Of a stretch of DNA of 64,000 nt, positions 4,003-35,307 are shown piece by piece; positions within the stretch are counted from its first letter, which is position 1; each line of letters starts with the position of its first letter. The notes beneath the pieces were generated by a model. It was not told the origin of the DNA. It searched no databases and was given only the letters and a program-made list of their open reading frames with translations. Source of the DNA: an uncultured Gammaproteobacteria bacterium (GTDB lineage: Bacteria; Patescibacteriota; Microgenomatia; UBA10105; UBA927); the NCBI GenBank assembly GCA_964609895.1, contig CAZSTG010000003.1, positions 7,574 through 71,573 on the forward strand, read 5' to 3'. Both the position numbers and the translations under genes were made by a program.

Positions 4003-4006
4003 TTGT

Positions 4007-4330: not shown

Positions 4331-4548
4331 AAATTCAGGATATAGGATTTTTGGCTGCGCTCATAATTCTTCTTTTTTTTCGAAAACCAAAAGTCTTTAT
4401 TTTCGCGGGTCTTGCCTGTTTTTTGTTGGCTATTCCATTATTTGCCAAATGGATTTTCTTTACGGGTGAGCGATTGGTTTGGTATGGCGCGGCGTTTATT
4501 ACAATTGGTATACTATACATGCTACTAGCAAAGGAGAAAAAGGTATGA
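4327..4548 (+). CDS. small membrane protein (two TM helices)
   Basis: 73-aa ORF with ATGA overlaps at both ends (with 4007..4330 and with galE). Two hydrophobic helices. Confidence 0.3.
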   Translation: MKIQDIGFLAALIILLFFRKPKVFIFAGLACFLLAIPLFAKWIFFTGERLVWYGAAFITIGILYMLLAKEKKV

Positions 4549-5533: not shown

Positions 5534-6640
5534 TTACTTTTTGAAGAAACGCTTGATCATGTCGATAACGTATTGTATTTGGCCTTCTGTCATTTCAGGA
5601 TATATGGGAAGACTTAAGGATGTTTCCGCTAAGTTTTCCGCAATTGGAAATGCCCCTTTTTTATAATTGAGATGTTTGTATGCAGTTTGTAGATGCGGAG
5701 GGATAGGGTAATGGATTAATGTTTTTATGGTCTGTGATTCCAGATATTTTTGCAGTGCATTTCGTTTCCGTGTCCGTATCGGATAGACGTGATAGACGTT
5801 TGTCGAACCCGTTTCTGTCGTTGGTAGGATGATGTCTCCAACGCCCATAAGTGCAGCGCTGTAGTGTTTGGCAATTGATTGTTTTCGTTTTGTGTACGTA
5901 TTCAGGTGTCTGAGTCTCACGCGAAGAAATGCGGCCTGCAGTTCGTCCAGTCTTGAATTGAATCCGATCCGTTCATTGATATACCGCTTTGATTCTCCGT
6001 AATTTCTGATGCTGCGCAACATGTCCGCATAGCGTTTGGCATTCGTTGTCAGTGCGCCTGCGTCGCCGATTGCACCCAAATTCTTTCCGGGATAAAAACT
6101 TGTTGCATTGATATGGCCGAAACTGCCGGTCTTTTTTCCGCGAAACGTTGCCCCATGGGATTGGGCATTGTCTTCTATGACGAACAACCGGTGCGTTGTT
6201 GCAATATGCATGATTGCATCCATTTGGCAGGCCTGTCCGAACAGATGTACCGGAATGATGGCTTTGGTTTTTTTTGTTATCGCATGTTTGATTGTGTCTG
6301 GATCAATGTTGTAGGTTTTGACTTTCGGTTCGACGGGTACCGGTTTTGCTCCGACGCGCGAGACGGCAACCAAGGTCGCAATATAGGTGTTGGAGGGAAC
6401 GATGACTTCATCGCCCTGTCCGATACCGAGTGCAGTGAGTGCCAATATCAGCGCATCCAGTCCGTTTCCGACCCCGATACAATACCGTGTGCCGGAAAAT
6501 GTTGCATACTGTTTTTCAAAAGCCTGTACTTCAGCGCCCAATATGACTCTTCCGCTTTGCAATACGCGAATGAGGGAGCGTGACAGCTCCTCTTCGATGG
6601 TGTGATAGGTGCAGTTCAGATCTAGATAGGGAACATGCAT
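5534..6640 (-). CDS. DegT/DnrJ/EryC1/StrS family PLP-dependent sugar aminotransferase (FdtB/QdtB-like)
   Basis: Motifs GDEVIVPSNTYIATL, HLFGQACQMDAI and SFYPGKNLGAIGDAGA (PLP lysine region). Family-typical 368 aa. Confidence 0.8.
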   Translation of the reverse strand: MHVPYLDLNCTYHTIEEELSRSLIRVLQSGRVILGAEVQAFEKQYATFSGTRYCIGVGNGLDALILALTALGIGQGDEVIVPSNTYIATLVAVSRVGAKPVPVEPKVKTYNIDPDTIKHAITKKTKAIIPVHLFGQACQMDAIMHIATTHRLFVIEDNAQSHGATFRGKKTGSFGHINATSFYPGKNLGAIGDAGALTTNAKRYADMLRSIRNYGESKRYINERIGFNSRLDELQAAFLRVRLRHLNTYTKRKQSIAKHYSAALMGVGDIILPTTETGSTNVYHVYPIRTRKRNALQKYLESQTIKTLIHYPIPPHLQTAYKHLNYKKGAFPIAENLAETSLSLPIYPEMTEGQIQYVIDMIKRFFKK

Positions 6641-6641
6641 A

Positions 6642-7634
6642 TTATTGTTTTCGTGTAACGAGTTTCAGAAACTGCTGATAATCACGGATATAATCGGATG
6701 CGTTATAGCGGTCGGAGGCAAAGACGGCGAGGATGGCATCTTCACTGTATTTGTACTGCGTACCCCATACCATTGGTGGTAAATAGAGACCCGTTGTCAT
6801 TTCCTGTAGTTCTATTTCCTCCCTGCGTGTGCCGTCATCCACAATGACGTGGACCGACCCTCTGATACACAGAAGATATTGTCTGCATTTTTTGTGTGCG
6901 TGTTCTCCGCGGACATCCTGACCGGGAACATGATACACGAAAAATACCCGTTTGATGAGAAAGGGGATATATTTCTGATATTCTACATAAGACAGGTTTC
7001 CCCGCAGGTCGGATGCTTTCTCTATTGTGTTCACCCACACATTTTTTACATGAAGTTTTTTTGGTGTTACTTTTCTGCCGGAAGCAATCGTTTTGCTTTT
7101 TTTTGCTGTTCCGGTTGTGACGTATCCGGTGATCCGTGCGGGATTTCCGACGACAATTGCATACGGCGGAACATCTTTTGTGACGACAGCGCCGGCTCCG
7201 ACCATTGCATACTCATGTACTGTGATTCCCGGAAGAATGGTTGCGTTTGCGCCGATGGATGCATGGTGTTTGACCGTTGTTTTGAGCGGTACAGTTTGAT
7301 GATGCCTGCTTCGGGGGAATTTATCATTTGCAAAGGTTGCATTCGGGCCGATAAAGACGTCGTGTTCAATGGTGATGCCGTCCCATAACTGTACGCCGCA
7401 CTTGACTGTTACGTTATCGTCCACGCGGACATTGTTTTCTATATACACGTGATCGCATATATTGCAGTTCCTGCCAATGAAGGCGGAAGCGAGAATATTG
7501 CAATACGCCCAGATGTGTGTACCTGAACCGATATGTGTTGCTTGAACTAACGCAGTGTCATGAATGAACGGTTTCATACAGACGCCCATGTGTTTCTGTG
7601 TTCGGCACACGGGTGTTTGAGCAGTGTTTTCCAT
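6642..7634 (-). CDS. bifunctional left-handed beta-helix N-acetyltransferase / cupin-type sugar 3,4-ketoisomerase (FdtD-like; FdtC-like N-terminus and FdtA/WxcM-like C-terminus)
   Basis: The N-terminal 170 aa carry hexapeptide repeats ([44 protein letters not shown]). The C-terminal 140 aa are a cupin with HxH-type residues (RGEHAHKKC...GSVHVIVDDG), as in FdtA/QdtA. True start may be the internal Met 20. Confidence 0.7.
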   Translation of the reverse strand: MENTAQTPVCRTQKHMGVCMKPFIHDTALVQATHIGSGTHIWAYCNILASAFIGRNCNICDHVYIENNVRVDDNVTVKCGVQLWDGITIEHDVFIGPNATFANDKFPRSRHHQTVPLKTTVKHHASIGANATILPGITVHEYAMVGAGAVVTKDVPPYAIVVGNPARITGYVTTGTAKKSKTIASGRKVTPKKLHVKNVWVNTIEKASDLRGNLSYVEYQKYIPFLIKRVFFVYHVPGQDVRGEHAHKKCRQYLLCIRGSVHVIVDDGTRREEIELQEMTTGLYLPPMVWGTQYKYSEDAILAVFASDRYNASDYIRDYQQFLKLVTRKQ

Positions 7635-7702
7635 AATACTGAATACGTATGAAAAAAGCTAGGATGTGCCGGAAAATGCAGAAATACGATATACTTGTAG
7701 AT

Positions 7703-8251
7703 ATGCGCGTCGGTATTGATATCAGTCAGGCGGTGTATGAAGGAACAGGGGTCGGAAGGTATGTGCGGGAACTTGTTCCCCGTGTGATTGCCGCATCCCC
7801 TGAACATTCGTTCGTCTTGTTTGCTGGGTGTCTCCGCCGGAAAAGAAGCATTGAGGAATTTGTCCGCCCGATTGTGAAAACATCGAAGCGTGTTACGGTA
7901 AAGATTGTTCCCATTCCCCCTAAATTACTCCATATCCTGTGGAATATCCTGCATATTGTACCTGTCCATTGGTTTACCGGACATGTGGATGTGTTCTGGT
8001 CAAGCGATTGGACACAGCCGCCGCTTGAAAGGAACACGGTGGGGATGACCACGATCCATGATGTCAGTTTTTTGCATTTTCCGGAAAGTTTTCCAAAGGA
8101 GATTCTTATGGTGCAGAGGCGGCGTATCCTTCGGGCAATCGGCGCATGCTCCCTGTTTTTATGCGATTCCGAGGCGACGAAAAACGATGTGGCACACTAT
8201 ATCGGCATCAAGGAAAGCAAATTACTCGTAGTCTATCCGGGGATTGCCTGA
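7703..8251 (+). pseudogene. truncated GT4 glycosyltransferase: N-terminal (acceptor) domain only, ending at the interdomain linker
   Basis: MRVGIDIS start, like the full-length paralogues at 8244 and 17358. Ends ...VVYPGIA* exactly where paralogues continue (VTYPGLS...). Lacks the C-terminal EX7E donor domain. Overlaps the next GT4 by 8 nt. Confidence 0.4.
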
Positions 8252-9404
8252 TGAACCTATGATTATTGCAATTGACGGTTATGAAGCAAATGTGACAACT
8301 CGAGTGGGGATCGGCAGATATGCCTATGAAATCCTGATGCATATGCATGCCGTGCTGCGCGACCGATACATTGCAGGTGAGCTGTCGGATGTGTATCGTA
8401 TTTATCTGCCTTCTTCCCCGATTGCCGACATGCCGAAAGCGTCTCCGTGGTGGCAATACCGTGTTGCCGGACCGAAAACCCTGTGGACTTTTTTCGGACT
8501 GCCGCGGGCACTGAGAAACGATACGCCGAAGGCAGACGTCGTTTTTTCGCCGACGCACTATATACCCCGCTTTATCAGCATTCCCCGCGTCATGTCCATC
8601 ATGGATCTTTCGTATCTGCAGTATCCTGAACTGTTCAAGCGAAGGGATCTGCATCAGTTGGTACACTGGACGCGATATTCCGTATCGCATGCAGCTGCGG
8701 TTTTTACCATCAGTGCATTCAGTAAAAATGCTATAATTGACACATACCACATTCCTGATGCGAAGGTTCATGTGACTTATCCGGGATTGAGCGCATTGCA
8801 ATCTATGGGAACGATTGAAAAATATCACATAGCAAAACACTATATCCTCTCCGTAGGCACGATTCAGCCTCGGAAAAACTACACACGCCTCATCGAAGGC
8901 TTTGCCGGATTTTTGAAGCTGAATAAACAGAAATTCGGCATGATTGATCTCGTGATTGTCGGAAAAAAAGGATGGCTGTATGAAGAAATCCTTCAGGCTC
9001 CCAAAAAATACGGGGTGGAAGACAGGGTAAAATTCCTTGACTTCGTGCCTGACAACGATCTGCCGGCACTGTACAAACATGCCCTTTGTTTTGCCCTTCC
9101 CAGCCTCTATGAAGGCTTTGGTCTGCCGGTTTTGGAGGCTATGGCTGAAGGGTGTCCTGTGGTGGTCAGTTCCGTTTCCAGTCTGCCGGAGATAGCGGGA
9201 AAAGCAGGTATTTACGTAACACCGGAGGACACCGCAAGTATCACTCAAGGACTCCTTACCGCCGTTCGTCAACGGAATCTCATGCAGGGGAGAGCACGCA
9301 TTAAAAAAGGGCTGGAACAGGTGAAAAGATTTACATGGGAAGAGGCGGCAAAACAGACCGTCGCCGTTTTGGAACGGGTAGCGCGGAAGGGAGCTAAGGT
9401 ATGA
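8244..9404 (+). CDS. glycosyltransferase family 4 (GT-B, retaining)
   Basis: 386 aa, two Rossmann halves. C-terminal [18 protein letters not shown] (EX7E) motif. Confidence 0.8.
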
Positions 9405-9985
9405 GAGGACTGATCGATTTTTGGGTATATCTCTGCACACTGAACGGCTATGTGTTAAGTCACACACTCCGGTTGTTTTTTTACCGGACACTGTACCGGA
9501 TAAAGATAGGAAAGCATTCGTCCATTCATTGGCGGGCGGAATTCGATAATCCCGCGGGAGTGGAAATAGGACACAATACCATCATCGGCAATGATGCGTT
9601 TCTTGACGGCCGTGCACCGATGAACGGGGACAAGAAACACTATCTGAAAAGATTTTTCGGCTCAGGCAGCAGACCGCTTCGTATCGGCAACAATGTCTCC
9701 ATCGCGGGCGAAGTGCGTATTTATACCATGGAACACGACATCGACAGTCCAGATTTTGCGGCAATCGGCGCGCCCGTCGTGATTGAAGATTATGTCGTCA
9801 TCGGATCCCGTGTTACCATACTTCCGGGGGTAACCATCGGCAAAGGGGCAGTAGTTGCATCGGGCGCCGTGGTGACAAAAGATGTTCCTGCGTATGCCGT
9901 TGTCGGCGGAGTACCCGCAACATTCATCAAAGAACGTTCAAAAGATCTTCGGTATACACTCAAATTTGCCCGTCTGTTCCAGTGA
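9401..9985 (+). CDS. hexapeptide-repeat sugar O-acetyltransferase (WcaF/WbbJ-like)
   Basis: LbH repeats [70 protein letters not shown] overlap with the upstream GT4. Confidence 0.8.
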
Positions 9986-10009: not shown

Positions 10010-10876
10010 ATGGATTTATCAATCATTATTGTCAGCTATAACACAAAAGACATTACAGACAATTGTCTGGCATCCATTAAGAAAAGTCTTCAAGGATCAC
10101 CGATCGTTTATGAAATCATCGTTGTAGACAACGTATCTACGGACGGTTCCCGCGAGATGCTGAGAAAAAAATATCCGGACGCGGTCACCATATTCAATGA
10201 TGAGAACGTCGGATTCGGCAGGGCGAATAATCAGGGAATAAGAAAAGCAAAGGGCGCATATATTTTGCTTATCAATTCCGACACGCTGGCAATCAAGAAC
10301 GCCATTCCAAAACTGTATGAATTCGCGAAAAATCATCCCAAGTCTTTTGCAGGGCCGAAACTTTTGAATATGGACAGAACGCCCCAGACTTCCTGCGGTC
10401 CATTTTTAACCACATATGTGGTGTTTGCCGCATTGTTTTTGAAGGGGGACGTCCTCGGTCTGACCAGATGGTCTCCGAATAAACTCAAAATTGTGGATTG
10501 GGTATCCGGCGCATGTATGATCGGTCCGAAAAAGCTGTTCATGGATGATTTGCTGTTTGATGAGCAGATATTCATGTATATGGAAGAAATCGATTTGTTT
10601 ATGCGCGCACGGAAAAAGGGATACAGAACCTATTTTTATCCAAACAGTCAGGTTGTGCATCTGGGGGGCGCAAGCTCGAGCAATAAGCGCACAGGACCCG
10701 TGCTGAATATCTATAGAGGGTTGCTGTTTGTGTATAAAAAACATTATTCCGGATTTTCGTTGTTCTGTCTGAAACGGATGCTGAAACTGAAAGCGGTTGT
10801 TTCCATGGGAATCGGGTATATTACAGGAAGCGAGTATTTGAAAAAAACATATGCGGAAGCTTATACATTGGTGTAA
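10010..10876 (+). CDS. glycosyltransferase family 2
   Basis: IIVSYNT...VVDNVSTDGS...INSDT (DXD) motifs of GT-A fold GT2. Confidence 0.8.
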   Translation: MDLSIIIVSYNTKDITDNCLASIKKSLQGSPIVYEIIVVDNVSTDGSREMLRKKYPDAVTIFNDENVGFGRANNQGIRKAKGAYILLINSDTLAIKNAIPKLYEFAKNHPKSFAGPKLLNMDRTPQTSCGPFLTTYVVFAALFLKGDVLGLTRWSPNKLKIVDWVSGACMIGPKKLFMDDLLFDEQIFMYMEEIDLFMRARKKGYRTYFYPNSQVVHLGGASSSNKRTGPVLNIYRGLLFVYKKHYSGFSLFCLKRMLKLKAVVSMGIGYITGSEYLKKTYAEAYTLV

Positions 10877-10895
10877 CCAATACGGATTATACGTC

Positions 10896-13838
10896 ATGAC
10901 GCTGTTTTTATTGGCGTTTATTCCGTTGTATCCGAAAATTCCCCTGCTGGACATTACGCAGACATGGGTATCGATCCGGTTTGAAGATCTTCTGGTGGGT
11001 GCGGCTGCTGTTTGCCTGTGTGCAACGCTTTTTCGAAATCGGAGACTGCCGAAATCCCCGTTGACGCGGCCGATCATCATCTATTGGATTGTTGGACTCA
11101 TTTCTTTGGGAAATGCACTGTTGTTTATTTTTCCTAATCTGTCCGGCGTGTTGTTTCCGCATCTTGCGGTGCTGCATTTTGTCCGCCGCATTGAATATAT
11201 GTTACTGTTTTTTGTGGCATATGAGGCATTCAGGAACAGACCGCTCATGAAACCGTTCCTCTGGACACTTATCGGATCATATGTTCTGATTATTCTTTAC
11301 GGGTTTGGACAGAAATTCCTTGGATTTCCTGCGTTTTTGACCATGAACGAGGAATTTGCCAAAGGACTGCCGCTCAAACTGCCGTCGACGGCACGGTTTC
11401 CTTCCACATTCGGTGGACATTATGATTTGGCGGCATATCTTATTCTGGTTATTCCTATTGTCGGCAGCCTGATTTTCAGTGCAAAAAAAGTTTGGGAAAA
11501 AATCCTGTTTCTTTTTCTGACACTTCTCGGTTTTGAGATGCTGCTGTTTACCGCATCCCGCGTGTCATTTGGTGTATATCTTGTATGTATGTCGTTCATG
11601 CTGTTTTGGCAGAAGAAAACACGACTCATTATTCCGATGATCGTGATCAGCATGACGATGATGACGCTTACAAGCGGGGCATCTGAACGGTTTTACAAAA
11701 CATTCAGCGTCAGCGACGTGATTGTAGACCTCTCGACCGGCAAGCCGATCGGTACGCTCAATTCAACCAGCGGCTCCAGTGCAACACTTGAGCCGATCGC
11801 GTCTCCCGCCGAGGATACGTTGCCACGGGGAAGCGAGTTTATCAACTTGGGTACAGCGGACAGTTCCGCATCCGGTCAGATTTCGGAAGTGTTGTATTAC
11901 AAAAGCATTGACGTGGACGGGATCGGGGATATTGCAACATTTTCCGGCAGTTTCCTTATTCAGAAAGCACTGGTGTATGACATTTCCATTACCACGAGGT
12001 TTCAGGGGCAATGGCCGCGCGCGATGGAGGCATTCAGGAGAAACTATCTTTTGGGCAGCGGGTATTCATCACTTTCCGTTGCCGTGGACGGCGATTATCA
12101 CCGGATGTTGGGAGAAACCGGAATCATCGGCACGATTGCATTTCTCGGCATTTTTGCGGCGGCATTTCAGTTGTTTTTGAAATATAAGGAAACCCTCGAG
12201 CCGGTAAAACGTGCATTTGTCATCGGACTGTTTGCCGGTATTGTCGGACTTTTGGTGAATGCGGTACTCATTGATGTATTTGAAGCATCGAAAGTCGCAT
12301 TTACCCTGTGGTCGCTTTTGGGCATCGCTGTTGCTCTTTTGGTTTCGGAAAAACAGGTAACCGTCAGATACCTGTCACTATTACGACATATTCTCACCCG
12401 TCCCGCAGCCTATATCGTGTATCTGTTCCTTGCTGTGTTTGTTATTTGGGGAATGGCCACACGGCTGTATTTTCTGGGAGACGATTTTACATGGCTTCGA
12501 TGGGCTGCGGAAAGCAACATTTCTGATATAGGTAAATTTTTCACCCAGTCGCAGGGATTTTGGTATCGTCCGATTCCAAAACTCTGGTATTATACTCTGT
12601 TTTCCGTTGTGTGGCTAAAACCAGCAATTTATCATGCATCATCGGTATTTTTGCTGTTTGCTACGTCATTTTTCATTTACCGCGTGGTGTTTCTGCGGAC
12701 AAAACAGCGCGCGTTTGCATGGATCGGCGCGCTCGTCTTTGCCGCCGCGTCCGTACACCATGAAAATGTATATTGGATTTCCGGACAAAGTAGCGTGCTT
12801 GCAGGATTTTTTCTGATGGCTGCGGTATATATACAAACGGAATCGCATGCATGGTTGAAACGGGTGCCTTTGTGGATAACGGCTGTTTGCACATGGGTGC
12901 TGACGCTGGCATCCATGCTTTCGTATGACGGAATGGTTATCGCACCGGTTGTCGTGACGCTGTTTGCTGTGTTCCGGCAGAAAAAATCCGTATGGACATA
13001 CATCACGCTTCTTTGTATTCCCGTATATCTTCTGATGAGACAGCAGGCCATGGCTCTTGCTCCTGCAGGGGACTACGGATATAAGACGAGCACATTTTTT
13101 ATCAACACCGTCAGCAACCTGCTCGGATACACCGTGTCATTTTTTGCAGGACCCGCGGTTGTTGCAGCATGGAATCAGCTGCGTGTGTTGTCACGGCCGT
13201 TTTTAAAACCCATGACTGTCGTATTCGGCGTCGTCGGGATTGCCGTCGTCCTATGGGTATGGAAAAAACGGGAAATAATACGCCGCCATACGGATGTGTG
13301 GATATGGTTTCTTGCCTATGGTATCTGCTTTGCCGCATATGCGCCCCTCGGGGGCATGGCCGACAGATATGTATATATTCCTTCCATGTTTTTGGCCGTC
13401 GGGCTTGCCATCGGCGCACACAGACTTTGGAATACAACACAGGGCAGATATATAAAACCCGTCATTTGTCTGTTGTGCGCGGTATATCTTGTTTGGAATG
13501 GTATGGAAGTGAAGCGTCTCGGCGGAGATTGGCTCTTTGCCAGCAAATCTGCGGAGCACGCATTGCAGGTGATTAAAAAGGAAACGTATCCGCCCAAAGA
13601 TGTGAAGACATTCTTTTTTGTCGATATGCCCATCAGATATGGAAGTGCATGGATTTTTCCGACAGGGATGAACGATGCTATCTGGCACATGTACAGGACA
13701 AGTCCGTACAGGGTGTTTACCATGCCGTCCATTGAAGACGCATATAAATTTTATATGAACCTAGGTGACAGGGAAGTATTTGTATTTGATAACTATGAAC
13801 TGAAACGCGGCGTTCGGGAAACACAGAACGTGCAGTGA
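10896..13838 (+). CDS. large membrane protein: O-antigen ligase/polymerase-like (Wzy_C) N-terminal half fused to a GT-C (GT39/ArnT-like) C-terminal half
   Basis: At least 20 TM helices. The N-terminal half has a periplasmic loop with NYLLGSGYSS...DGDYHRMLGETGIIG (Wzy_C/O-antigen-ligase signature). The second half starts a new TM array with YFLGDDFTWLRWAAES, like GT39 family proteins. Start chosen at Met 16 of ORF 10851; the upstream ATG at 10851 is also possible. Confidence 0.55.
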   Translation: MTLFLLAFIPLYPKIPLLDITQTWVSIRFEDLLVGAAAVCLCATLFRNRRLPKSPLTRPIIIYWIVGLISLGNALLFIFPNLSGVLFPHLAVLHFVRRIEYMLLFFVAYEAFRNRPLMKPFLWTLIGSYVLIILYGFGQKFLGFPAFLTMNEEFAKGLPLKLPSTARFPSTFGGHYDLAAYLILVIPIVGSLIFSAKKVWEKILFLFLTLLGFEMLLFTASRVSFGVYLVCMSFMLFWQKKTRLIIPMIVISMTMMTLTSGASERFYKTFSVSDVIVDLSTGKPIGTLNSTSGSSATLEPIASPAEDTLPRGSEFINLGTADSSASGQISEVLYYKSIDVDGIGDIATFSGSFLIQKALVYDISITTRFQGQWPRAMEAFRRNYLLGSGYSSLSVAVDGDYHRMLGETGIIGTIAFLGIFAAAFQLFLKYKETLEPVKRAFVIGLFAGIVGLLVNAVLIDVFEASKVAFTLWSLLGIAVALLVSEKQVTVRYLSLLRHILTRPAAYIVYLFLAVFVIWGMATRLYFLGDDFTWLRWAAESNISDIGKFFTQSQGFWYRPIPKLWYYTLFSVVWLKPAIYHASSVFLLFATSFFIYRVVFLRTKQRAFAWIGALVFAAASVHHENVYWISGQSSVLAGFFLMAAVYIQTESHAWLKRVPLWITAVCTWVLTLASMLSYDGMVIAPVVVTLFAVFRQKKSVWTYITLLCIPVYLLMRQQAMALAPAGDYGYKTSTFFINTVSNLLGYTVSFFAGPAVVAAWNQLRVLSRPFLKPMTVVFGVVGIAVVLWVWKKREIIRRHTDVWIWFLAYGICFAAYAPLGGMADRYVYIPSMFLAVGLAIGAHRLWNTTQGRYIKPVICLLCAVYLVWNGMEVKRLGGDWLFASKSAEHALQVIKKETYPPKDVKTFFFVDMPIRYGSAWIFPTGMNDAIWHMYRTSPYRVFTMPSIEDAYKFYMNLGDREVFVFDNYELKRGVRETQNVQ

Positions 13839-13839
13839 T

Positions 13840-15300
13840 ATGAAAGCAAAGGCCTTTACCATCATCTGTTTATTGTCGATTGCAGTCATTGGTGTTTTGA
13901 TGCGTCTGTATAAGGTGCAGGAGCCGGTCGCAGATTGGCACAGCTGGCGGCAGGCGGATACTGCGGCGGTTGCGAGAAATTATGTACGATTTGGGATTGA
14001 TCTGCTGCATCCACGTTATGATGATCTTTCAAACATTCAATCCGGTACGGACAATCCAGAGGGGTATCGGATGGTGGAATTTCCTTTGTATCAGGCGGCA
14101 GCGGCATGGTGTTATACACTGTTTGGAAGTGTTTCCATCGAACTATGGCTTCGTATATTCGCCATTGCGGCATCGACAATCACAGGATGTGCGCTGGGAT
14201 TGTTTCTGTGGCGGAGAATAAATGCAATTACAGGAGTATTAAGTGCGTTGTTGTATGCCGTCCTTCCGTATAGCGTGTATTATGGGAGAGCAATACTTCC
14301 TGACGGCATAGCTGTATGTTTTGCTATTCTGAGTATTCTATTTTTTGATATTGGAAACGACGAAAAGAAAAAGTCCGGAATATGGGGATATACACTTCTT
14401 TCAGCACTTTTTGGTGCAACCTCTCTTCTTGTTAAACCTGTTGCCGGATTTTTACTGCTGCCTTTGGCAGGCATGCTTTTTGTTGATAAAAAACAGGTGG
14501 GAAAAACACTCATCCGACTTGTGGCTGTGAGTGTGATAACACTGGTGCCGTTTTATGTTTGGCGTCAATGGATAGCCCAATATCCAGAGGGAATAGCCGC
14601 ATATATGTGGTTATTTAACGGCAACGGGATACGTCTGAAAGGCGCATGGTTTTATTGGCTGTTTGCGGAACGGATCGGCAAACTTATCCTAGGATACTGG
14701 GGCGTTCTGTTTTTGGGATTGGGGCTTATCGAAAAAACAGAAAAGAAAGAGCGGTTTCTCAGTCATCTTTTGGGGTTGGGCGCGCTGCTGTATATGGTTA
14801 TTCTTGCAACCGGCAATGTGCAACATGATTACTATCAGATTCTGATTCTCCCTGCGGTTGCGGTGTACGGAGCAAAAGGGATCGCATGGATGATCAAGAA
14901 AAACTGGGAGACAAGGGGACTGCAGAAAATAGTAGGAATCGCCGTGGGAATGGTTGTATGTGTATTCACTGTCTTTTTTTCATGGTATACCGTGAGAACA
15001 TATTACTGGATTAACAGACCCGAAATCATTGAGGCGGGATTGGCTGCACAAAAACTTCTTCCGGAAAATGCAAAAGTCGTTGCGCCATATAACGGCGACA
15101 CAACATTTTTGTATCAGACCGGTCATCAGGGATGGCCACTAGGATTTGATATAGATCAAAAAATAAAGATGGGTGCAACACACTATGTGACTGTGTCTCC
15201 GACAGATGCTGATTTAGAGACGCGGGATCTTGCCAATATGTATACTGTGCTTGTAAGAAACGACAAGTTCGCAATTATTGATTTGACGAAGAAAAAATAA
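13840..15300 (+). CDS. GT-C membrane glycosyltransferase, GT39/ArnT-like (dolichyl-phosphate-mannose-protein mannosyltransferase family)
   Basis: N-terminal HSWRQADTAAVARNYV motif typical of bacterial GT39/GT83. About 12 TM helices, 486 aa. Confidence 0.6.
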   Translation: MKAKAFTIICLLSIAVIGVLMRLYKVQEPVADWHSWRQADTAAVARNYVRFGIDLLHPRYDDLSNIQSGTDNPEGYRMVEFPLYQAAAAWCYTLFGSVSIELWLRIFAIAASTITGCALGLFLWRRINAITGVLSALLYAVLPYSVYYGRAILPDGIAVCFAILSILFFDIGNDEKKKSGIWGYTLLSALFGATSLLVKPVAGFLLLPLAGMLFVDKKQVGKTLIRLVAVSVITLVPFYVWRQWIAQYPEGIAAYMWLFNGNGIRLKGAWFYWLFAERIGKLILGYWGVLFLGLGLIEKTEKKERFLSHLLGLGALLYMVILATGNVQHDYYQILILPAVAVYGAKGIAWMIKKNWETRGLQKIVGIAVGMVVCVFTVFFSWYTVRTYYWINRPEIIEAGLAAQKLLPENAKVVAPYNGDTTFLYQTGHQGWPLGFDIDQKIKMGATHYVTVSPTDADLETRDLANMYTVLVRNDKFAIIDLTKKK

Positions 15301-15304: not shown

Positions 15305-16477
15305 ATGAATATACTGTTTGTCAGTGCACTCCTGCCATATCCGCTCCACTCAGGTGGACAGGTGCGCATGTACAATCTTCTGAAACTGTTAAGCAAAAAA
15401 CATACCATAACACTCTTTTCGTTTATGAGGAACAAGGAGGAACAAAACTATATTCGTTCCTTATCGTTTTTGTCTGATATTCATTTGGTCATGCGGGGAA
15501 AAGGAAGACAGGTAAAATATGTGGTCAAAGCACTGGGGAATTATCCACTCCTTCTTGCAACCTACGACAACAGGGTGATGCAGGAGGAAATAAAAAAGGA
15601 ACTCACAAGGAAGAAGTACGATCTGGTGCACATAGAGCCGTTTTATGTGTTTCCATCACTGCCACCGCTCTCACTTCCGTTCGTGGTGTCTGAGCACAAC
15701 GTCGAATATGACATTTATCAGAAAAATGCGGAAAAAATGCGGTTGCCGATTGTGAAACCTTTTGCTTATTTTGATGCCATAAAGGTGAAAATATGGGAAG
15801 AGATCGTCTGGCAAAAAGCAAAGCAGGTAACAGCGGTATCGTCTGAAGACGCAACAGTGATAACCCGTGCAACAAAAAAAGAAACGGCAGTTGTTCCGAA
15901 TGGCGTAGACACAACAGCATTTGTGTACAAAGAGCGGGCGTTTATAAAAGATCACCCCACCTGTTTATTTGTCGGAAATTTTCTCTGGGCGCCAAATACA
16001 GAGGCAATACGAACTCTCCTTGTGTCCATTTGGCCAAAGATTGTTGCTCGCTACCCGAACGCTGTGCTTACCATTGTCGGAAAACACTTTCCCAAAGACG
16101 TAAAAAAATATGTAACCGGTTCTGTGCGTCTTGAGGAATATGTTGAGGATATCCAAGATGCATTCCATGCATCAGATATTCTGCTTGCGCCAATGGGAAT
16201 AGGTGGGGGAACGAAATTTAAGATTCTTGAGGCAATGGCATCAGGCACACTGGTCATCACCACTCCCCAAGGAAGAATGGGTATCGTCGGAGCATCCGGA
16301 AAAGAATTGCTGGAAGCCTCGACTGCTGATGAGTTTGTTGGGGCAGTCACTTCGGTTTATGACGAACAGCGTACGTCTAAGATCATAACGAAAAACGCGA
16401 GGAAATTAGTTGAAAATACCTATGATTGGAAGGCAATCGCAGAAAAGTTGGATGCGGTTTGGAAAGGATCAGTATGA
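15305..16477 (+). CDS. glycosyltransferase family 4
   Basis: GT-B fold, N-terminal MNILFVSALLPYPLHSGGQVR and C-terminal Glycos_transf_1-like region. ATGA overlap with the next gene. Confidence 0.7.
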   Translation: MNILFVSALLPYPLHSGGQVRMYNLLKLLSKKHTITLFSFMRNKEEQNYIRSLSFLSDIHLVMRGKGRQVKYVVKALGNYPLLLATYDNRVMQEEIKKELTRKKYDLVHIEPFYVFPSLPPLSLPFVVSEHNVEYDIYQKNAEKMRLPIVKPFAYFDAIKVKIWEEIVWQKAKQVTAVSSEDATVITRATKKETAVVPNGVDTTAFVYKERAFIKDHPTCLFVGNFLWAPNTEAIRTLLVSIWPKIVARYPNAVLTIVGKHFPKDVKKYVTGSVRLEEYVEDIQDAFHASDILLAPMGIGGGTKFKILEAMASGTLVITTPQGRMGIVGASGKELLEASTADEFVGAVTSVYDEQRTSKIITKNARKLVENTYDWKAIAEKLDAVWKGSV

Positions 16478-17352
16478 ACACTGTTGATGTCTCAGTTGTT
16501 ATTTTGAATTTTAATACAGTAGAACTTACAAAAACGTGTATAGAACGTCTCTACGCCTCAAAACTTGGGAAATACACAATGGAAATTATTGTCTGTGACA
16601 ACGCATCAACGGATGGGACAGACGCAATGATTAAGAAAGAGTTTAAGGATGTGATATTTATCCAAAACGGGGGGAATGTCGGATTTGCTGCAGGAAATAA
16701 TCCCGGTATCAAGCGTGCAAGCGGACGATATGTATTGCTTCTTAATTCTGACACAGAGGTTGAGAAAGATACCATCGCAACCATGATTCGGTTTATGGAC
16801 GATCATCATGCAGCAGGAGCTTCTACATGTAAGTTACTTTTAATGGATGGTTCTATGGATCCAGCGTGTCATCGGGGGATGCCGACACCATGGAACGGTT
16901 TGACATACTACGCAAAACTGGAAAAGCTATTCCCAAAAATAAAGTGGTTTAGCGGGTATCATCAGTTGTACAAAAATCTTGATACGGTACATGAGGTTGA
17001 TTGCATCAGTGGTGCATTTTTTCTCGTTCGACGGAAAGTGATTGAAACAGTCGGTATGCTGGATGAATCCTTTTTTATGTACGGGGAGGATATCGATTGG
17101 GCGTACCGGATGAAACAGGCAGGTTGGCAGATATGGTTTAATCCCACTGTGACGACACTGCATAAAAAGAAACAAAGCGGCAGGTCACATACAAATAGGG
17201 AACGAAGAGTGAAAACACAGCTTCTGTTCATCAAATATAATAAACTGTTTTATACAAAGCATTACGAAAAGAAATATCCCCGCATTGTGACGTTTTGTGT
17301 CTACCTTGCCTTTGCACTGCAGACCATAAAAGTAAAAATATTCGGGGCATAA
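16474..17352 (+). CDS. glycosyltransferase family 2
   Basis: Start at internal Met 17 (ATGA overlap with upstream stop). VVILNFNT...CDNASTDGT...LNSDT motifs. Confidence 0.8.
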   Translation: MNTVDVSVVILNFNTVELTKTCIERLYASKLGKYTMEIIVCDNASTDGTDAMIKKEFKDVIFIQNGGNVGFAAGNNPGIKRASGRYVLLLNSDTEVEKDTIATMIRFMDDHHAAGASTCKLLLMDGSMDPACHRGMPTPWNGLTYYAKLEKLFPKIKWFSGYHQLYKNLDTVHEVDCISGAFFLVRRKVIETVGMLDESFFMYGEDIDWAYRMKQAGWQIWFNPTVTTLHKKKQSGRSHTNRERRVKTQLLFIKYNKLFYTKHYEKKYPRIVTFCVYLAFALQTIKVKIFGA

Positions 17353-17357
17353 AAAAT

Positions 17358-18452
17358 ATGCGCATAGGAATTGATGCTCGTCTTATTGCTGAAACTGGTA
17401 TCGGACGGTATATCCGTAATGTCATAGCAGAGCTTGCTACTGTTGATACCAAAAATACATATATCGTTTTTTTGTCATCTGACGCTTTTGACACATTTGT
17501 GCCTCCCAACACCAGATGGGAAAAACGATTATGTACGGTTCATTGGCATACCCTCAAAGAACAGCTCATTATGCCGAAAATTTTTTCTCGTGAGCATCTT
17601 GATCTGTTGCATGTACCATATTTTAACGTGCCGATTTTTTATACCAAACCCTATGTCGTGACCATCCATGATTTAACGATTCTTCATGTTGCAACTGGTA
17701 AAGCGACCACACTGCCAAAACCGTTATATTGGTTACGAAGAATCGGGTATCAACTCATTGTTCGTCTTGGTGTGCTGCGTGCTACACACATTATTGCCGT
17801 TTCAGAAAGTACGAAAAGCGATATTGTCAAAAGCCTGCATGTTTCCCCGCAAAAAATCAGTGTGACGTATGAAGGAGTTGATACGAACATACAAACAACC
17901 AAAGACGCAAATCCTTCTCGTACACCATATTTTTTGTATGTGGGAAATGCCTACCCGCACAAAAATCTAGAATTTCTTATTAGGAGTTTTGGAACATTTG
18001 TTGTAAAGCATCCGACGTATCAGCTAGTACTTATCGGGAAAAACGACTTTTTCTATACACGGTTGTCTGCGTGGGTGATGCAGTTTCCCTTTGCCTCCCG
18101 TGTCCGGTTTATTACGTCCGCAACTGATGAGGAACTTGCTTCCTATTATATATATACACGTGCTTTTATTTTCCCCTCACTCATGGAAGGATTTGGGCTT
18201 CCGGCTCTTGAGGCGATGAAGTTTGGTGCGCCGGTTCTCTGTTCAGACATACCGGTATTCCATGAATTGTTTGCATCCATTCCCCAGTATTTTAATCCTC
18301 ATAATGAGCAATCACTTGTTGATGCAATGGAGCAGGCGGCAACCGGAAAAAAGAAACAGCTTGGTAGAGAAGAACAAATGTATCTGGAACGCTACCAATG
18401 GAAAACTGCCGCAAAACACACACTTCGGGTATATGAGCAGGCGCTGATATGA
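17358..18452 (+). CDS. glycosyltransferase family 4
   Basis: Start at Met 22 (MRIGIDARL), 6 nt after the upstream stop. EGFGLPALEAMKFGAPVLCS EX7E motif. Confidence 0.8.
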   Translation: MRIGIDARLIAETGIGRYIRNVIAELATVDTKNTYIVFLSSDAFDTFVPPNTRWEKRLCTVHWHTLKEQLIMPKIFSREHLDLLHVPYFNVPIFYTKPYVVTIHDLTILHVATGKATTLPKPLYWLRRIGYQLIVRLGVLRATHIIAVSESTKSDIVKSLHVSPQKISVTYEGVDTNIQTTKDANPSRTPYFLYVGNAYPHKNLEFLIRSFGTFVVKHPTYQLVLIGKNDFFYTRLSAWVMQFPFASRVRFITSATDEELASYYIYTRAFIFPSLMEGFGLPALEAMKFGAPVLCSDIPVFHELFASIPQYFNPHNEQSLVDAMEQAATGKKKQLGREEQMYLERYQWKTAAKHTLRVYEQALI

Positions 18453-19540
18453 AGGTTGCACTTATCTATGATAGGGTAAACAAGGTTGGTGGAGCGGAAC
18501 GTGTTCTCATTGCATTGCATGAGTTGTTCCCTGACGCGCCGCTTTATACTGCAGTATATGACAGGAAAGGCGCTCCGTGGGCACGGGTGTTGGCCGTTCG
18601 CACGTCATTCATCAACCGTATTTCGTGGGCTCGTACCCGACACGAGTATTTTGCATGGCTTACGCCGCTCGCATTCCGGTTGTTTGATTTTTCATCTTTT
18701 GATGTGGTGATCAGTGTTACCAGTGCTGAAGCAAAAAATATCCGTACAACCCGTTCGACAGTGCATCTTTGTTATTGTCTGACCCCCACGAGATATTTAT
18801 GGAGCGGATTTTCCGCCTACGCTCGGCAGCAAGGCCTGCTGTCGTTTTTTTTCCGGCTGTGGGCGCCACTTTTGCGGCGTTGGGATCTTTCTGCGGCTAA
18901 ACGGCCAGACCACTACGTTGCAATATCAGACCGCGTCAGCCGCCGGATAGCGACATATTACAAACGCACGGCGGATTGTGTGATCTATCCTCCGGTTGAG
19001 ACAACCAAGTTCTTCCCCAAAAAAGATACAGTAAACGGGAAATACTATTTATTTGTGTCACGGCTGGTACCGTACAAGCGACCCGACATTGTGATTGCGG
19101 CATGTAACAGACTGCGTATTCCGTTGATTATCATCGGTACAGGCAGTGAATATCCGAGACTGAAAAAAATGGCTTCGGATACAGTTCGGTTTATTACCGA
19201 ATATTTGACAGATAAAGAAATGCTTCGGTATTATCAAAATTGCCGTGCATTTCTTTTTGCAGGCGATGAAGACTTCGGTATAGTTGCGGCGGAAGCGCAA
19301 AGCGCGGGGAAAGCGGTTATTGCATACAGGGAAAGCGGCATTGCGGAAATTGTTGTTGACGGGAAAACGGGTGTTTTGTTTGATGAACAGACCCCAGAAG
19401 GGTTGATGCGGGCAATTCGGAAATTTGAAAAGATGCGCATATCATCAGATGCTTGTAGGCGTCAGGCTGAGAAATTCAGTACGAAACGGTTTAAGGAAGA
19501 AATGACGGCATATATTCATACAGCGGTAAATCAAGTATAA
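18449..19540 (+). CDS. glycosyltransferase family 4
   Basis: ATGA overlap with upstream gene. C-terminal GDEDFGIVAAEAQSAGKAVIAY (EX7E). Confidence 0.7.
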   Translation: MKVALIYDRVNKVGGAERVLIALHELFPDAPLYTAVYDRKGAPWARVLAVRTSFINRISWARTRHEYFAWLTPLAFRLFDFSSFDVVISVTSAEAKNIRTTRSTVHLCYCLTPTRYLWSGFSAYARQQGLLSFFFRLWAPLLRRWDLSAAKRPDHYVAISDRVSRRIATYYKRTADCVIYPPVETTKFFPKKDTVNGKYYLFVSRLVPYKRPDIVIAACNRLRIPLIIIGTGSEYPRLKKMASDTVRFITEYLTDKEMLRYYQNCRAFLFAGDEDFGIVAAEAQSAGKAVIAYRESGIAEIVVDGKTGVLFDEQTPEGLMRAIRKFEKMRISSDACRRQAEKFSTKRFKEEMTAYIHTAVNQV

Positions 19541-19549: not shown

Positions 19550-20632
19550 ATGAAAGCAATTGTCTTTGCAGGTGGTGTAGGAACAAGGTTGTGGCCACTT
19601 TCACGAAAAAAGTCGCCCAAGCAGTTTGAAAAAATCATCGGAAACAAATCAACGCTGCAGCTGGCGGTTTCACGGGTGCAACCGGATTTTACATGGAATG
19701 ACATCTACGTTTCTACGGGAAAACAATATGTCGGCACAGTTGAAGCACAGCTGACGGAACTTCCAAAAGGTCATGTGATCGGAGAACCGGTCATGCGTGA
19801 TGTAGGACCGGCAGTCGGGCTCGTAACAGCGTTGTTTGCAACGGTGTCTCCAGATGAACCGATGGTGATTCTGTGGAGTGATCATCTTGTGAAGAACGAA
19901 GTTCTGTTCCGGAAAATCCTGAAAGCGGCGGGCAGGATCGTGAAACGAGATCAAAACAAGATTATATTTGTGTCCCAGAAGCCGCGGTTTGCCAGTGAAA
20001 ATCTCGGATGGATCGATTTCGGCAATACCGTTGAAACAGATGACGGCATTGCCATGCATGCCTTTGTCGATTTCCAATATCGCCCTGATGCGGCTACGGC
20101 CAAGAAGTATTTTGAAAGCGGACATCATGCGTGGAATTTGGGCTATTTTGTGACGACACCGAGATTTTTATTGTCCCAATATAAAAAATTTGTTCCCAAT
20201 GTATATGAGGGATTGCAGGAGATTGCACGTGCATGGCAGACGGATACGTATGAACTTGTTCTTGAAAAAGTCTATCCGACACTCGAAAAAATAAGTTTTG
20301 ACAACGCGATTCTGGAAAAACTGGATCCGGCACATGCGTTGGTTGTTTCTGAAAATATCGAGTGGAGCGATATCGGCGCATGGGAGGCACTCAAAGAATC
20401 GCTGGAAGGTACATCGGATAAAAACGTCACGCAGGGAAAGGTATTTTTAAAGGATGTGGATGACTGTCTGGTTTATAATTACGGCAAACAGCTGGTTGTC
20501 GGCATTGATGTCTCCGAATTACTTATCGTGAATACCGATGACGTGCTGATGGTATGCAAAAAAACGTCCGTTCCGAAAATCAAGAAGGTAGTAGAGGGAT
20601 TTGCCGGTACCGATCATGAATCGCTTACCTAA
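19550..20632 (+). CDS. sugar-1-phosphate nucleotidyltransferase (mannose-1-phosphate guanylyltransferase-like, no PMI domain)
   Basis: N-terminal AIVFAGGVGTRLWPLSRKKSPKQF nucleotidyltransferase signature. 360 aa. Confidence 0.7.
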   Translation: MKAIVFAGGVGTRLWPLSRKKSPKQFEKIIGNKSTLQLAVSRVQPDFTWNDIYVSTGKQYVGTVEAQLTELPKGHVIGEPVMRDVGPAVGLVTALFATVSPDEPMVILWSDHLVKNEVLFRKILKAAGRIVKRDQNKIIFVSQKPRFASENLGWIDFGNTVETDDGIAMHAFVDFQYRPDAATAKKYFESGHHAWNLGYFVTTPRFLLSQYKKFVPNVYEGLQEIARAWQTDTYELVLEKVYPTLEKISFDNAILEKLDPAHALVVSENIEWSDIGAWEALKESLEGTSDKNVTQGKVFLKDVDDCLVYNYGKQLVVGIDVSELLIVNTDDVLMVCKKTSVPKIKKVVEGFAGTDHESLT

Positions 20633-20636
20633 TACT

Positions 20637-21278
20637 ATGTGGTATACAGTTACAAAACGGTTGATTGATATTGTTGCAAGTATACTCCTCATCAGTACGA
20701 TTTTTTTGCCTGTCATCATCATTACTTCCATTGCCATTCTTTTGGATTCGGAAGGTCCGGTGTTGGCGGATACTCCGAACCGCGTGGGTAAAAACGGAAA
20801 GTTGTTTAAATTGTTTAAATTTCGTTCCATGGTGGTGAATGCCCATCAGATGCTACGGAGTGATCCGAAAATGGCAAAACTATACGAAGAATACCGGCAC
20901 AACAGCTATAAACTGGTGCATGACCCGCGTGTAACCAGAGTCGGTAGGTTTATACGGAAGCACAGTATTGATGAAATTCCGCAGCTTTTTAATGTGCTCA
21001 AAGGCGATATGAGTCTTGTGGGGCCTCGGCCGTATTATGAAGATGAACTTCGGGAACAGCAGAAAAAATATCCGCAGACAAAACAGCTGGTGAAAGTGGT
21101 GTTGTCCGCAAAACCCGGAGTAACCGGTTATTGGCAGGTTTCAGGAAGAAGCGAAGTGAATTTCGACAAACGCATCCAGATGGACGCAGACTACGTGACC
21201 AAACGGTCGCTCTTGTTTGATATCCTTATTATTCTCAAAAGCCCGCTTGCGATGATTACCGGAAAAGGCGCGGTATAA
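20637..21278 (+). CDS. polyprenyl-phosphate glycosyl-1-phosphate transferase (bacterial sugar transferase, PglC/WbaP C-terminal type); priming enzyme
   Basis: [13 protein letters not shown] helix, [12 protein letters not shown] and [21 protein letters not shown] catalytic motifs. Start at Met 13 of ORF 20601, just after the upstream stop. Confidence 0.85.
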
Positions 21279-27496: not shown

Positions 27497-27504
27497 AAAA
27501 CAGT

Positions 27505-27798: not shown

Positions 27799-27818
27799 AA
27801 TAACCATAAGTACTACGT

Positions 27819-29495: not shown

Positions 29496-29638
29496 TACAG
29501 TGATGGAGTAGCGTGTTTGTTTGGTGAATCACTGATGCTAGAAAATTGTCATACGAGAAAAATACTATAAGCTTCATTTAGCTTCAGTTTGATCATATAC
29601 ATAGCCGTGCGTGTCGTTCTTTTGATATAATAGAGTCC

Positions 29639-30808: not shown

Positions 30809-30818
30809 ACTTCTGTTT

Positions 30819-31559: not shown

Positions 31560-31560
31560 T

Positions 31561-32970: not shown

Positions 32971-32973
32971 TTT

Positions 32974-33954: not shown

Positions 33955-33955
33955 T

Positions 33956-35293: not shown

Positions 35294-35307
35294 TGAAGGA
35301 GGATTGT

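Follow-up and report, generated by a model that had tools for sequence, protein, structure and literature searches.

The 64,000-nucleotide stretch of DNA analysed here (the window), from an uncultured bacterium of the Microgenomates (CPR), encodes a protein in which two membrane-embedded modules of the GT-C superfamily are joined in one polypeptide. With a probability of roughly 0.55, we read this fusion protein as a bifunctional glycosyltransferase, whose two autonomous modules act at the extracytoplasmic finishing stage of a glycan cluster; it probably finishes a cell-surface sugar polymer outside the membrane. The preliminary description had interpreted the gene as a Wzy/ligase-like domain fused to a GT-C enzyme, and the folds of the two modules support this interpretation. 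Three genes are central to the argument:

10010..10876, plus strand: upstream GT2 gene, overlapping the fusion start by 26 nt
10851..13838, plus strand: fusion gene, an uninterrupted ORF of 995 aa (980 aa from the internal start at 10896)
13840..15300, plus strand: partner gene for a PMT_2/GT39-like class-A GT-C protein of 486 aa, 1 nt after the fusion stop codon

The preliminary description was right in proposing a 995-aa fusion protein from a single ORF, but the start that it gave, 10896, is the internal Met16. An identical database protein (P0001) is annotated as 980 aa, i.e., from Met16. The 15 residues before Met16 (MRKLIHW...) agree with the homologue consensus MKKLxxW, and homologous fusion genes also overlap the upstream GT2 gene, by 26–32 nt (L001, L003). 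Since the N-terminal extension is conserved and the overlap recurs, 10851 is the likelier start. Residues are numbered below from Met16 (at 10896); adding 15 gives the 995-aa numbering, so that D529/D530 become D544/D545. All of the motifs initially quoted were found: in the fusion protein NYLLGSGYSS (residue 383), DGDYHRMLGETGIIG (398) and YFLGDDFTWLRWAAES (525), and in the next ORF HSWRQADTAAVARNYV (residue 34).

Homologues of the fusion protein number at least 1,993, nearly all of ~1,000 aa and with 97–100% coverage, and the mean column identity is 61% in an alignment of 36 diverse family members; such conservation indicates that the ORF is not due to chance. Searching the whole protein and each half against Pfam and NCBIfam at E ≤ 10 returned noise only (e.g., Sensor_TM1 and DUF7268). 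A PDB-sequence profile search matched the segment GRAWIFPTGxxDAxWH to Photorhabdus lectin repeats (E = 1.9), which we discarded as a chance match.

The survey of split versus fused forms, suggested in the preliminary description, placed both halves within one ORF in every one of the 79 GTDB species loci that include upstream sequence, and revealed genuine split forms in two other lineages. In the latter, the modules are separate, full-length and translationally coupled genes with their own stop, restart and tails, not products of a one-base slip. The junction between the halves is a loop of fixed length, practically indel-free in the 36-member alignment. Two sets of candidate single-module forms were rejected. 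Several ~530-aa matches had looked like standalone proteins; four of these, P0263, P0269, P0274 and P0282, are fragments truncated at the 5' end, with their first residues lying within TM12 of the N module. Loci L086-L088 had seemed to carry a GT-C protein without a WaaL module; a contig-end-cut ORF bearing the C module lies upstream, and L090 has the complete layout, with a fused gene and an additional paralogue, so this case was dismissed as well.

The N-terminal half comprises the following features:

10851..12356, plus strand: WaaL/Wzy_C-like module (GT-C class B type), 12 predicted TM helices, N-in/C-in
11322..11420, plus strand: first conserved outer loop, residues 143–175, GFPAFLTMNEEFAKG..R..FGGH, directly followed by the invariant D177
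11691..12101, plus strand: large outer loop TM9–TM10, residues 266–402, ~137 aa, partly beta
12042..12071, plus strand: NYLLGSGYSS motif, in the large TM9–TM10 outer loop
12087..12131, plus strand: DGDYHRMLGETGIIG, beginning in the large outer loop and extending into TM10

This half had been likened to O-antigen ligases. Structure comparison of its AF2 model indeed found similarity to the fold of a solved O-antigen ligase, and the model has 12 helices, of which helices 9 and 10 are linked by a 137-residue loop, predicted outside by the positive-inside rule. O-antigen ligases characteristically have twelve TM helices and, towards the C-terminus, a long extracytoplasmic loop; a long C-proximal loop typifies clan GT-C1 too, and the large loop of the N module occupies the matching position (PMC10920833). 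The Wzy_C check, on the other hand, stayed below the cut-off: the window protein did not match PF04932 (gathering score 31.7 bits) even at E ≤ 10, 23 of the 36 relatives matched at E ≤ 1 (best 1.1e-7), and six relatives inspected scored 25.2–30.3 bits, every one under 31.7.

The first outer loop, outside by the positive-inside pattern and of low pLDDT in the model, is nearly invariant in the family (N151, E152, K156, R167, H175 and D177 in all 36 members). The large loop contributes the invariant K268, D278, R368, R382, N383, D398 and Y401, its edges R265, R403 and E407; R222 is likewise among the invariant arginines of the module. O-antigen ligases bind Und-PP through two Arg residues and activate the acceptor through a His, all in external loops. 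In the N module, the invariant R222, R265, R368, R382 and R403 could serve as such arginines. Of the 36 members, only 19 keep H402, the His of the DGDYHRMLGETG motif, while D398 and E407 are invariant. In clan GT-C1 polymerases, Glu takes the place of the ligase His (PMC10920833). Because the ligase-type His is not conserved and the acidic residues are, the N module leans towards the polymerase-like pattern.

The C-terminal half carries these features:

12357..13838, plus strand: class-A GT-C module, residues 488–980, ~11 TM helices and an outer C-terminal domain
12465..12620, plus strand: first external loop (EL1), residues 524–575, outside by the positive-inside pattern
12480..12485, plus strand: invariant D529–D530 pair, inside YFLGDDFTWLRWAAES (12468..12515), in EL1
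13587..13835, plus strand: C-terminal beta-rich domain, ~83 residues (898–980), predicted extramembrane

Here, the proposal of a PMT/ArnT-like GT-C enzyme held for the fold and failed for the family profiles. The model has the GT-C class-A fold, with Pmt4 and Pmt2 as best or near-best structural neighbours. EL1 starts right after TM1 (503–523), and the acidic pair, six residues past the end of TM1, is invariant in 36 of 36 members, as are R558, P559 and K562 of the same loop; the motif DD[FY]TW retrieved 170 GTDB genomes. The PMT (PF02366) and PMT_2 (PF13231) HMMs, in turn, matched none of the 36 members at E ≤ 1, and hhalign of the C half against the neighbouring PMT_2 family gave a probability of 30% only (P 5.5e-4). 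Sub-threshold PMT_2/PMT matches (E 6e-5 to 3e-3) occurred only in remote standalone relatives of the module, whose relatives number at least 119 cluster representatives at E ≤ 1e-30 and ~43,000 more distant ones at E ≤ 1e-3. The C-terminal domain shows strands in both structure models and has invariant P912, G916, A918-W919, G924, D927 and W930. It possibly binds the acceptor glycan, by analogy with the C-terminal CBM of GT136 GT-C enzymes (PMC11127046).

As originally proposed, each half is a TM array of its own, with a separate fold and different structural neighbours; modelled alone, the C half reached pLDDT 92.1 and pTM 0.91. No similarity between the N and C halves was detectable by hhalign, which speaks for two distinct modules and rules out an internal duplication.

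The downstream protein had been called GT39-like, and this proved correct: PF13231 matches at E 1.5e-9 (38.7 bits, cut-off 26.1), and several of its more than 4,300 homologues are named 'glycosyltransferase family 39'. Its EL1 has two Asp residues, D32 and D40, that do not vary among 30 homologues, and the gene lies directly 3' of the fusion gene in 78 of 80 loci. The upstream GT2 (PF00535, E 3e-25; EpsD/TuaG-like by NCBIfam, under the cut-offs) is also a conserved neighbour, its position and overlap being kept in L001 and L003. Together they belong to a glycan cluster of ~20 kb, syntenic across Gottesman-, Woese-, Levy- and Roizmanbacteria, that contains a WbaP-type phosphoglycosyl transferase, GT4s, GT2s, an acetyltransferase, a conserved mannose-1-phosphate guanylyltransferase gene and up to four GT-C-like membrane proteins. 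The ORF at 808..2661 and a DUF2079 protein gave nothing significant by hhalign against the N, C and PMT_2 profiles.

WaaL/Wzy-type enzymes transfer glycans en bloc from undecaprenyl-diphosphate, and class-A GT-C enzymes usually transfer one sugar from a polyprenyl-monophosphate donor. By the positive-inside rule, the conserved loops of both modules would face the outside of the cytoplasmic membrane, and they are presumably catalytic. Taking both modules as catalytically competent, we infer the following donors, acceptor and order of reactions. In the cytoplasm, the WbaP-type enzyme and the GT4/GT2 enzymes would assemble a repeat unit on undecaprenyl phosphate. Once flipped, this unit would be polymerised, or ligated to the final acceptor, by the WaaL/Wzy-like module, and lipid-phosphate donors would supply sugars that the fused GT-C module and PMT_2 enzyme attach to this glycan or to its acceptor. 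Mannose is a plausible added sugar, given that the cluster has a conserved guanylyltransferase gene. With both modules in one chain, the two steps would be kept at a 1:1 stoichiometry and close together.

It is tempting, if rather speculative, to see in the fusion a Microgenomates-specific 'prime-and-ligate' (or 'polymerise-and-cap') nanomachine. Its class-A GT-C module would use a lipid-phosphate sugar to build or mark an outer-face acceptor, onto which the WaaL-type module, being tethered, would at once move the Und-PP-linked glycan. If true, this would mean a WaaL-like ligase with a new class of acceptor in a bacterium that has no lipid A. The Microgenomates CPR superphylum would thereby have a defined core envelope glycoconjugate, and the split and fused forms would be direct evidence of physical complexes of class-A and class-B GT-Cs.

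Alternatively, and to our mind unlikely, the protein might be a protein O-glycosylation machine, its N module being a PglL/WsaB-like O-oligosaccharyltransferase that transfers Und-PP-glycan onto S-layer, pilin or other surface proteins, and the GT-C and PMT_2 enzymes acting on the same targets like O-mannosyltransferases. Consistent with this are the Pmt4 and Pmt2 neighbours of the C half, the adjacent PMT_2/GT39-like gene and the fact that bacterial O-OTases are members of the same Wzy_C superfamily as the N module; moreover, to our knowledge, CPR bacteria lack lipid A-core, the classical WaaL acceptor. We doubt that only one module of the bifunctional enzyme is catalytic, the other being a scaffold, substrate-binding or regulatory domain, as PIG-U/GAB1 are non-catalytic proteins within the GT-C fold. 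Against this stand the typical class-A acidic pair, the other basic and acidic residues that are invariant in each module's external loops, and the retention of both as full-length genes in split forms; moreover, GT-C1 polymerases have Glu for the ligase His (PMC10920833), and the invariant D398 and E407 are next to H402. A SEDS-type peptidoglycan polymerase (FtsW/RodA paralogue) is a very improbable identity for the N module, as this half has neither an HMM match (FTSW_RODA_SPOVE, PF01098) nor its best structural match among SEDS proteins. Finally, an assembly, frameshift or gene-calling artefact of two genes, which the genuine split versions might bring to mind, is refuted almost beyond doubt by the uninterrupted ORF here and in the 79 independent species genomes, the fixed junction length and the independent stops, restarts and tails of the split forms.

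In the literature searched, we found nothing directly relevant on this architecture in CPR or on Wzy_C and GT-C fusions, and no experimental work on any family member; the WaaL-like plus GT-C pairing is widely conserved yet undescribed. In it, a transferase for Und-PP-linked glycans (WaaL/Wzy type) is naturally coupled, by covalent linkage, to a GT-C for lipid-phosphate sugars, and the fused and translationally coupled split forms provide a Rosetta-stone argument that the two enzyme classes cooperate physically. We know of hardly any experimental work on the cell envelopes of Microgenomates and other CPR bacteria. Because the cluster is syntenic across four lineages, it probably makes a core surface glycoconjugate, which is probably relevant to the surface-attached lifestyle of Microgenomates. 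The C module represents a GT-C family of its own, for which there is no Pfam, NCBIfam or apparent CAZy model, and its high-confidence structure model could guide mutagenesis.

Among known systems, WaaL of Cupriavidus metallidurans (PDB 7TPG/7TPJ; CAZy GT121, PF04932) and the Wzy-type polymerases of clan GT-C1 are closest to the N module. Compared with WaaL, the N module has ~15% identity, no score that reaches a curated HMM threshold, a much larger external loop with beta strands, invariant acidic residues instead of a conserved ligase-type His, a second membrane glycosyltransferase fused to it, and a monoderm-like CPR host without lipid A. WadA of Brucella/Mesorhizobium (GT25 + GT121), the only bimodular ligase reported in the literature searched, similarly joins a ligase module covalently to another glycosyltransferase, for which the same acceptor is assumed. 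This partner, however, is a Leloir enzyme of GT25, soluble and cytoplasmic, with a nucleotide sugar as donor, which puts the two catalytic sites on opposite membrane faces. Our fusion protein has no GT25 or other soluble GT domain; its partner is an integral-membrane class-A GT-C module of ~11 TM helices, which by prediction uses a lipid-linked donor and works on the outer side like the ligase module. Physical cooperation of these two enzyme classes is not described in the literature searched. The two proteins also differ in domain order, with the ligase module N-terminal in ours and C-terminal in WadA. The closest kinds to the C module are PMT (GT39), ArnT (GT83), ALG12 (GT22), GtrII and the three-component O-antigen decoration systems (GT136); unlike these, it falls in no curated family, has a family-specific DDFTW(L)RW motif and HHEN loop, and is usually fused to a WaaL-like module. 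Overall, the cluster resembles Gram-positive Wzy-dependent loci for cell-wall glycopolymers (e.g., teichuronic acid tua and eps clusters) in its WbaP-type initiator, EpsD/TuaG-like GT2s, GT4s, acetyltransferase and Wzy_C-type protein. In place of Wzx, Wzz and LCP, none of which was recognised among the window ORFs tested, it has the GT-C-like membrane proteins, and, in contrast to a variable serotype locus, it is a conserved core locus of Microgenomates.

The fusion is encoded by one uninterrupted ORF (10851..13838, plus strand; 995 aa), which bears out the single protein proposed in the preliminary description; the four motifs quoted there were all found in place. Position 10896, taken there as the start, is Met16 of the long ORF, and the identical public protein P0001 is annotated with a shorter 980-aa call. 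Residues 1-15 of the long ORF (MRKLIHW...) agree with the homologue consensus N-terminus MKKLxxW..., and homologous genes of other genomes likewise overlap the upstream GT2 gene (by 26-32 nt). Thus, 10851 is the likelier of the two starts. The next ORF (13840..15300, plus strand; 486 aa) starts 1 nt past the stop codon of the fusion gene. Residues are counted below from Met16, so that numbers in the 995-aa protein are higher by 15.

At least 1,993 significant homologues of the fusion were found among 5.8 billion proteins searched. The best 120 of these are almost all ~980-1,010 aa long, with a query coverage of 97-100% and identity down to 46%; they stem from MAGs of Microgenomates, Gottesmanbacteria and Patescibacteria, and nearly all carry the annotation 'hypothetical'. 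In a 36-sequence alignment, mean column identity is 61%, well over 100 invariant columns are spread across both halves, and the two halves meet in a short, fixed-length loop that is essentially free of indels. A motif-based GTDB scan for the C-terminal module, with one genome per species, recovered it in 170 genomes, and we surveyed the best 80 loci (25-81% identity). Both halves lie in one ORF in all 79 loci with upstream sequence, which excludes a frameshift or assembly artefact; the restored join of two genes, raised in the preliminary description as a way in which the fusion might prove false, is the explanation to which we give the least credence of all. A homologue of the 486-aa gene lies directly 3' of the fusion in 78 of the 80 loci, while in the remaining two the contig end precedes any scorable ORF for it.

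Dozens of the MAG records with this gene pair among the homologous loci L007-L083 are titled 'uncultured Gammaproteobacteria', and the other records with this pair bear the names Microgenomates, Gottesman-, Woese- or Levybacteria. Such titles look like placeholder or mislabelled taxonomy, and the titles of three single records, Pacearchaeota (L082), Lysobacterales (L060) and Methylomirabilota (L072), are doubtful too.

Neither the whole window protein nor its separate halves matched Pfam or NCBIfam at E<=0.1, and noise alone appeared at E<=10. Wzy_C (PF04932) matches 23 of the 36 family members (best E 1.1e-7); in six members inspected, the matched region (residues ~223-432) contains a large insertion, and its score of 25-30 bits falls just short of the 31.7-bit gathering score. 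The C-terminal half matched no family in any of the 36 members, no curated HMM exists for this module, and a profile search of PDB sequences returned nothing meaningful for the fusion. By HMM, the Wzy/O-antigen-ligase-like domain claimed earlier is matched in relatives and not in the window protein itself, the GT39-like assignment of the C half gains no match, and no single family takes in the whole protein. The next gene was rightly called GT39-like: its product is plainly of the PMT_2 family by profile match (PF13231, E 1.5e-9, above cut-off; PMT PF02366, sub-threshold), and some of its >4,300 homologues bear the name 'glycosyltransferase family 39'. In profile-profile comparison, the C half was colinear with this PMT_2 family (P 5.5e-4, 239 columns, probability 30%), in weak agreement with structure prediction, and the N half matched neither the PMT_2 family nor the C half. 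It is the predicted structure that settles the homology of the two halves, the N half being nearest in fold to WaaL (GT121, clan GT-C1) and the C half to PMT, ALG12, ArnT and AglB.

Sidedness was judged from model helices combined with family-wide K+R counts per loop. In the predicted structure, the N module has 12 helices, and its short K/R-rich loops (49-56, 115-117, 193-198, 239-241 and 484-502) alternate with K/R-poor or large ones (12-28, 82-87, 143-175, 219-221, 266-402 and 459-464). Such an alternation points to an N-in/C-in topology in which two conserved loops lie outside, 143-175 and 266-402 (137 residues). Published O-antigen ligases agree with this layout, having 12 TM helices and a long external loop that carries conserved residues (PMC10920833). 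In the C module, TM1 (503-523) leads outward into EL1 (524-575), which holds the invariant D529-D530, R558 and K562; other K/R-free external loops contain H621-H622-E623-N624 and G725-D726-Y727, and a beta-rich C-terminal domain (898-980) is predicted to be external. By the positive-inside rule, the conserved polar residues of both modules would lie on the same outer side. Only 19 of the 36 aligned members retain the His of DGDYHRMLGETG, a residue resembling the canonical WaaL His, and D398, Y401, R403 and E407 around it are invariant in the alignment. This pattern counts against a simple 'ligase' label. In related polymerase families, Glu replaces the ligase His (CAZy study, PMC10920833), and the pattern tilts the N module slightly towards a polymerase-like chemistry.

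An exhaustive C-module profile search of 1.84 billion cluster representatives gave 119 matches at E<=1e-30, 8,423 at E<=1e-10 and 43,151 at E<=1e-3, so the module is part of a GT-C superfamily that is very large and whose members are mostly distant. Several ~530-aa proteins within the best 150 matches were rejected as standalone forms, being 5'-truncated fragments that begin within N-module TM12; genuine standalone C-module proteins are present there as well. Standalone relatives at greater distance match PMT_2, PMT or GtrII below threshold (E 6e-5 to 3e-3). Through them the C module has a transitive link with the PMT_2-like part of the GT-C clan, which does not make it a GT39 member.

The preliminary description had proposed comparing split and fused forms among relatives; the fused form proved dominant, with true split forms at two loci. 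On the soil contig L085 (order GT2, Wzy_C gene, GT-C gene, PMT_2), the 528-aa Wzy_C gene covers N-profile positions 1-484 and ends in its own 33-residue tail and stop, and the 516-aa GT-C gene restarts in another frame with its own Met-Lys N-terminus. At L089 (GT4, GT4, acetyltransferase, GT2, N-only gene, GT-C gene, PMT gene), the ATG of the 470-aa GT-C gene overlaps the TGA of the N-only gene (531 aa; N-profile 3-486, 430 bits) as TGATG, and the split modules are apparently translationally coupled. L090 (GCA_964406795.1, 3960..9512) has a fused 1,069-aa gene followed by GT2, an extra standalone GT-C paralogue and PMT_2, an arrangement repeated in truncated form in L086-L088. The standalone copy scores 270 bits to the window C module versus 65 for the C part of the fused copy in that genome, which suggests module duplication followed by divergence or replacement. 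Overall, the modules are separable yet always adjacent and, at L089, apparently coupled, which is good comparative evidence that they work together.

The fusion gene sits in an operon-like plus-strand cluster:

808..2661, plus: 13-TM protein of unknown family
2668..3618 and 4479..5531, plus: two NAD-dependent epimerase/dehydratase genes
5534..7634, minus: DegT aminotransferase and FdtA-acetyltransferase pair
7649..8251, plus: GT4 N-domain protein
8244..9404, plus: GT4
9401..9985, plus: WcaF-like acetyltransferase
10010..10876, plus: GT2
10851..13838, plus: fusion
13840..15300, plus: PMT_2
15305..19540, plus: GT4, GT2, GT4, GT4
19550..20632, plus: mannose-1-phosphate guanylyltransferase
20601..21278, plus: WbaP-type phosphoglycosyl transferase
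21468..23441, plus: DUF4012 protein
after the DUF4012 gene: RecO

Such a gene set is characteristic of a polyprenol-linked glycan pathway, and its order is kept in genomes (L001, L003) whose fusion protein is only 47-50% identical. Among the window ORFs tested, no Wzx flippase, Wzz or LCP ligase was recognised, nor any obvious GtrB/ArnC/DPM1-type lipid-phosphate-sugar synthase.

Several neighbours deserve comment. The 808..2661 product (617 aa, ~13 TM segments, C-terminal soluble part) has no Pfam/NCBIfam match and gave nothing significant in hhalign against the N, C and PMT_2 profiles; similar unannotated genes (603 and 620 aa) head the cluster in L003 and L004. Its role might be that of the missing flippase or of an additional GT-C-like enzyme. 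The interval between the two epimerases (3661..4548, plus strand) holds small conserved genes, namely one for a DUF5674 protein (3661..4002), a 107-aa ORF and a two-TM ORF of 73 aa (4327..4548); L001 and L003 have a gene of 65-73 aa at the corresponding position. The DegT aminotransferase and FdtA-plus-hexapeptide acetyltransferase, on the opposite strand within the cluster, are missing from L001 and L003 and look like a strain-specific insertion adding a 3-acetamido-3,6-dideoxyhexose-type sugar pathway. The 200-aa product of 7649..8251 has the GT4 N-terminal (Glyco_transf_4) domain alone, directly before a complete 386-aa GT4. Since L001 and L003 keep this pair (178-182 aa plus 369-377 aa), the half-GT4 is probably functional rather than a pseudogene.

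We favour, with a probability of roughly 0.55, a bifunctional outer-face glycosyltransferase that combines WaaL/Wzy-type transfer with class-A GT-C sugar addition alongside the PMT_2 enzyme. The WaaL/Wzy-type module would transfer the Und-PP-linked oligosaccharide made by the cluster, polymerising or ligating it, while the class-A GT-C module and the neighbouring PMT_2 enzyme would use polyprenyl-phosphate donors to add sugars to this glycan or to its acceptor; fusion would provide proximity and fixed stoichiometry. Mannose is a plausible added sugar because the ManC gene is conserved in the cluster. A protein O-glycosylation machine, with an O-OTase and a PMT-like enzyme, seems unlikely to us, and we are more doubtful still that one of the two modules is non-catalytic. 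A SEDS-like role is scarcely credible: the window has a separate genuine FtsW (PF01098, E 2e-107) in its dcw cluster, so the SEDS polymerase of the cell is a protein other than the N module.

That dcw-type cell-wall cluster (26639..50738, plus strand) is complete, lies just downstream of the glycan cluster and includes MraW, a PBP transpeptidase, several Mur ligases, MraY, MurD and FtsW; the organism thus makes peptidoglycan. As listed, ~240 nt are shared between a DegT-like ORF (38574..40049) and a Mur-ligase ORF; the true start of the DegT-like ORF probably lies later. Outside the glycan cluster, 60323..61771 (plus strand) encodes a GT-C-like DUF2079 membrane protein (PF09852, E 2.6e-40), so that the window holds at least three, possibly four, GT-C-type membrane glycosyltransferases besides FtsW. 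At ~52000..56000, GC falls to 0.33-0.35 against ~0.45 elsewhere in the window; this stretch, which contains a 438-aa ORF (52847..54163) with no Pfam match, may be a foreign island.

Glycosyltransferase fusions are common, so this one is not surprising in principle. In the searchable literature, we found no description of a WaaL/Wzy plus class-A GT-C fusion or of this protein family, and to our knowledge the envelope biochemistry of the host lineage is essentially unknown. The fusion cleanly couples two lipid-linked-donor enzymes, is widely conserved and had gone unannotated. Among known architectures, WadA of Brucella comes closest; a 2023 study presented it as the first bifunctional O-antigen ligase (PMC9938171), and CAZy lists it as the bimodular GT121. 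In WadA, the ligase is joined to a soluble cytoplasmic GT25 and the catalytic sites are on opposite membrane faces, whereas both modules of the fusion are integral-membrane GT-C enzymes predicted to work on the same face.
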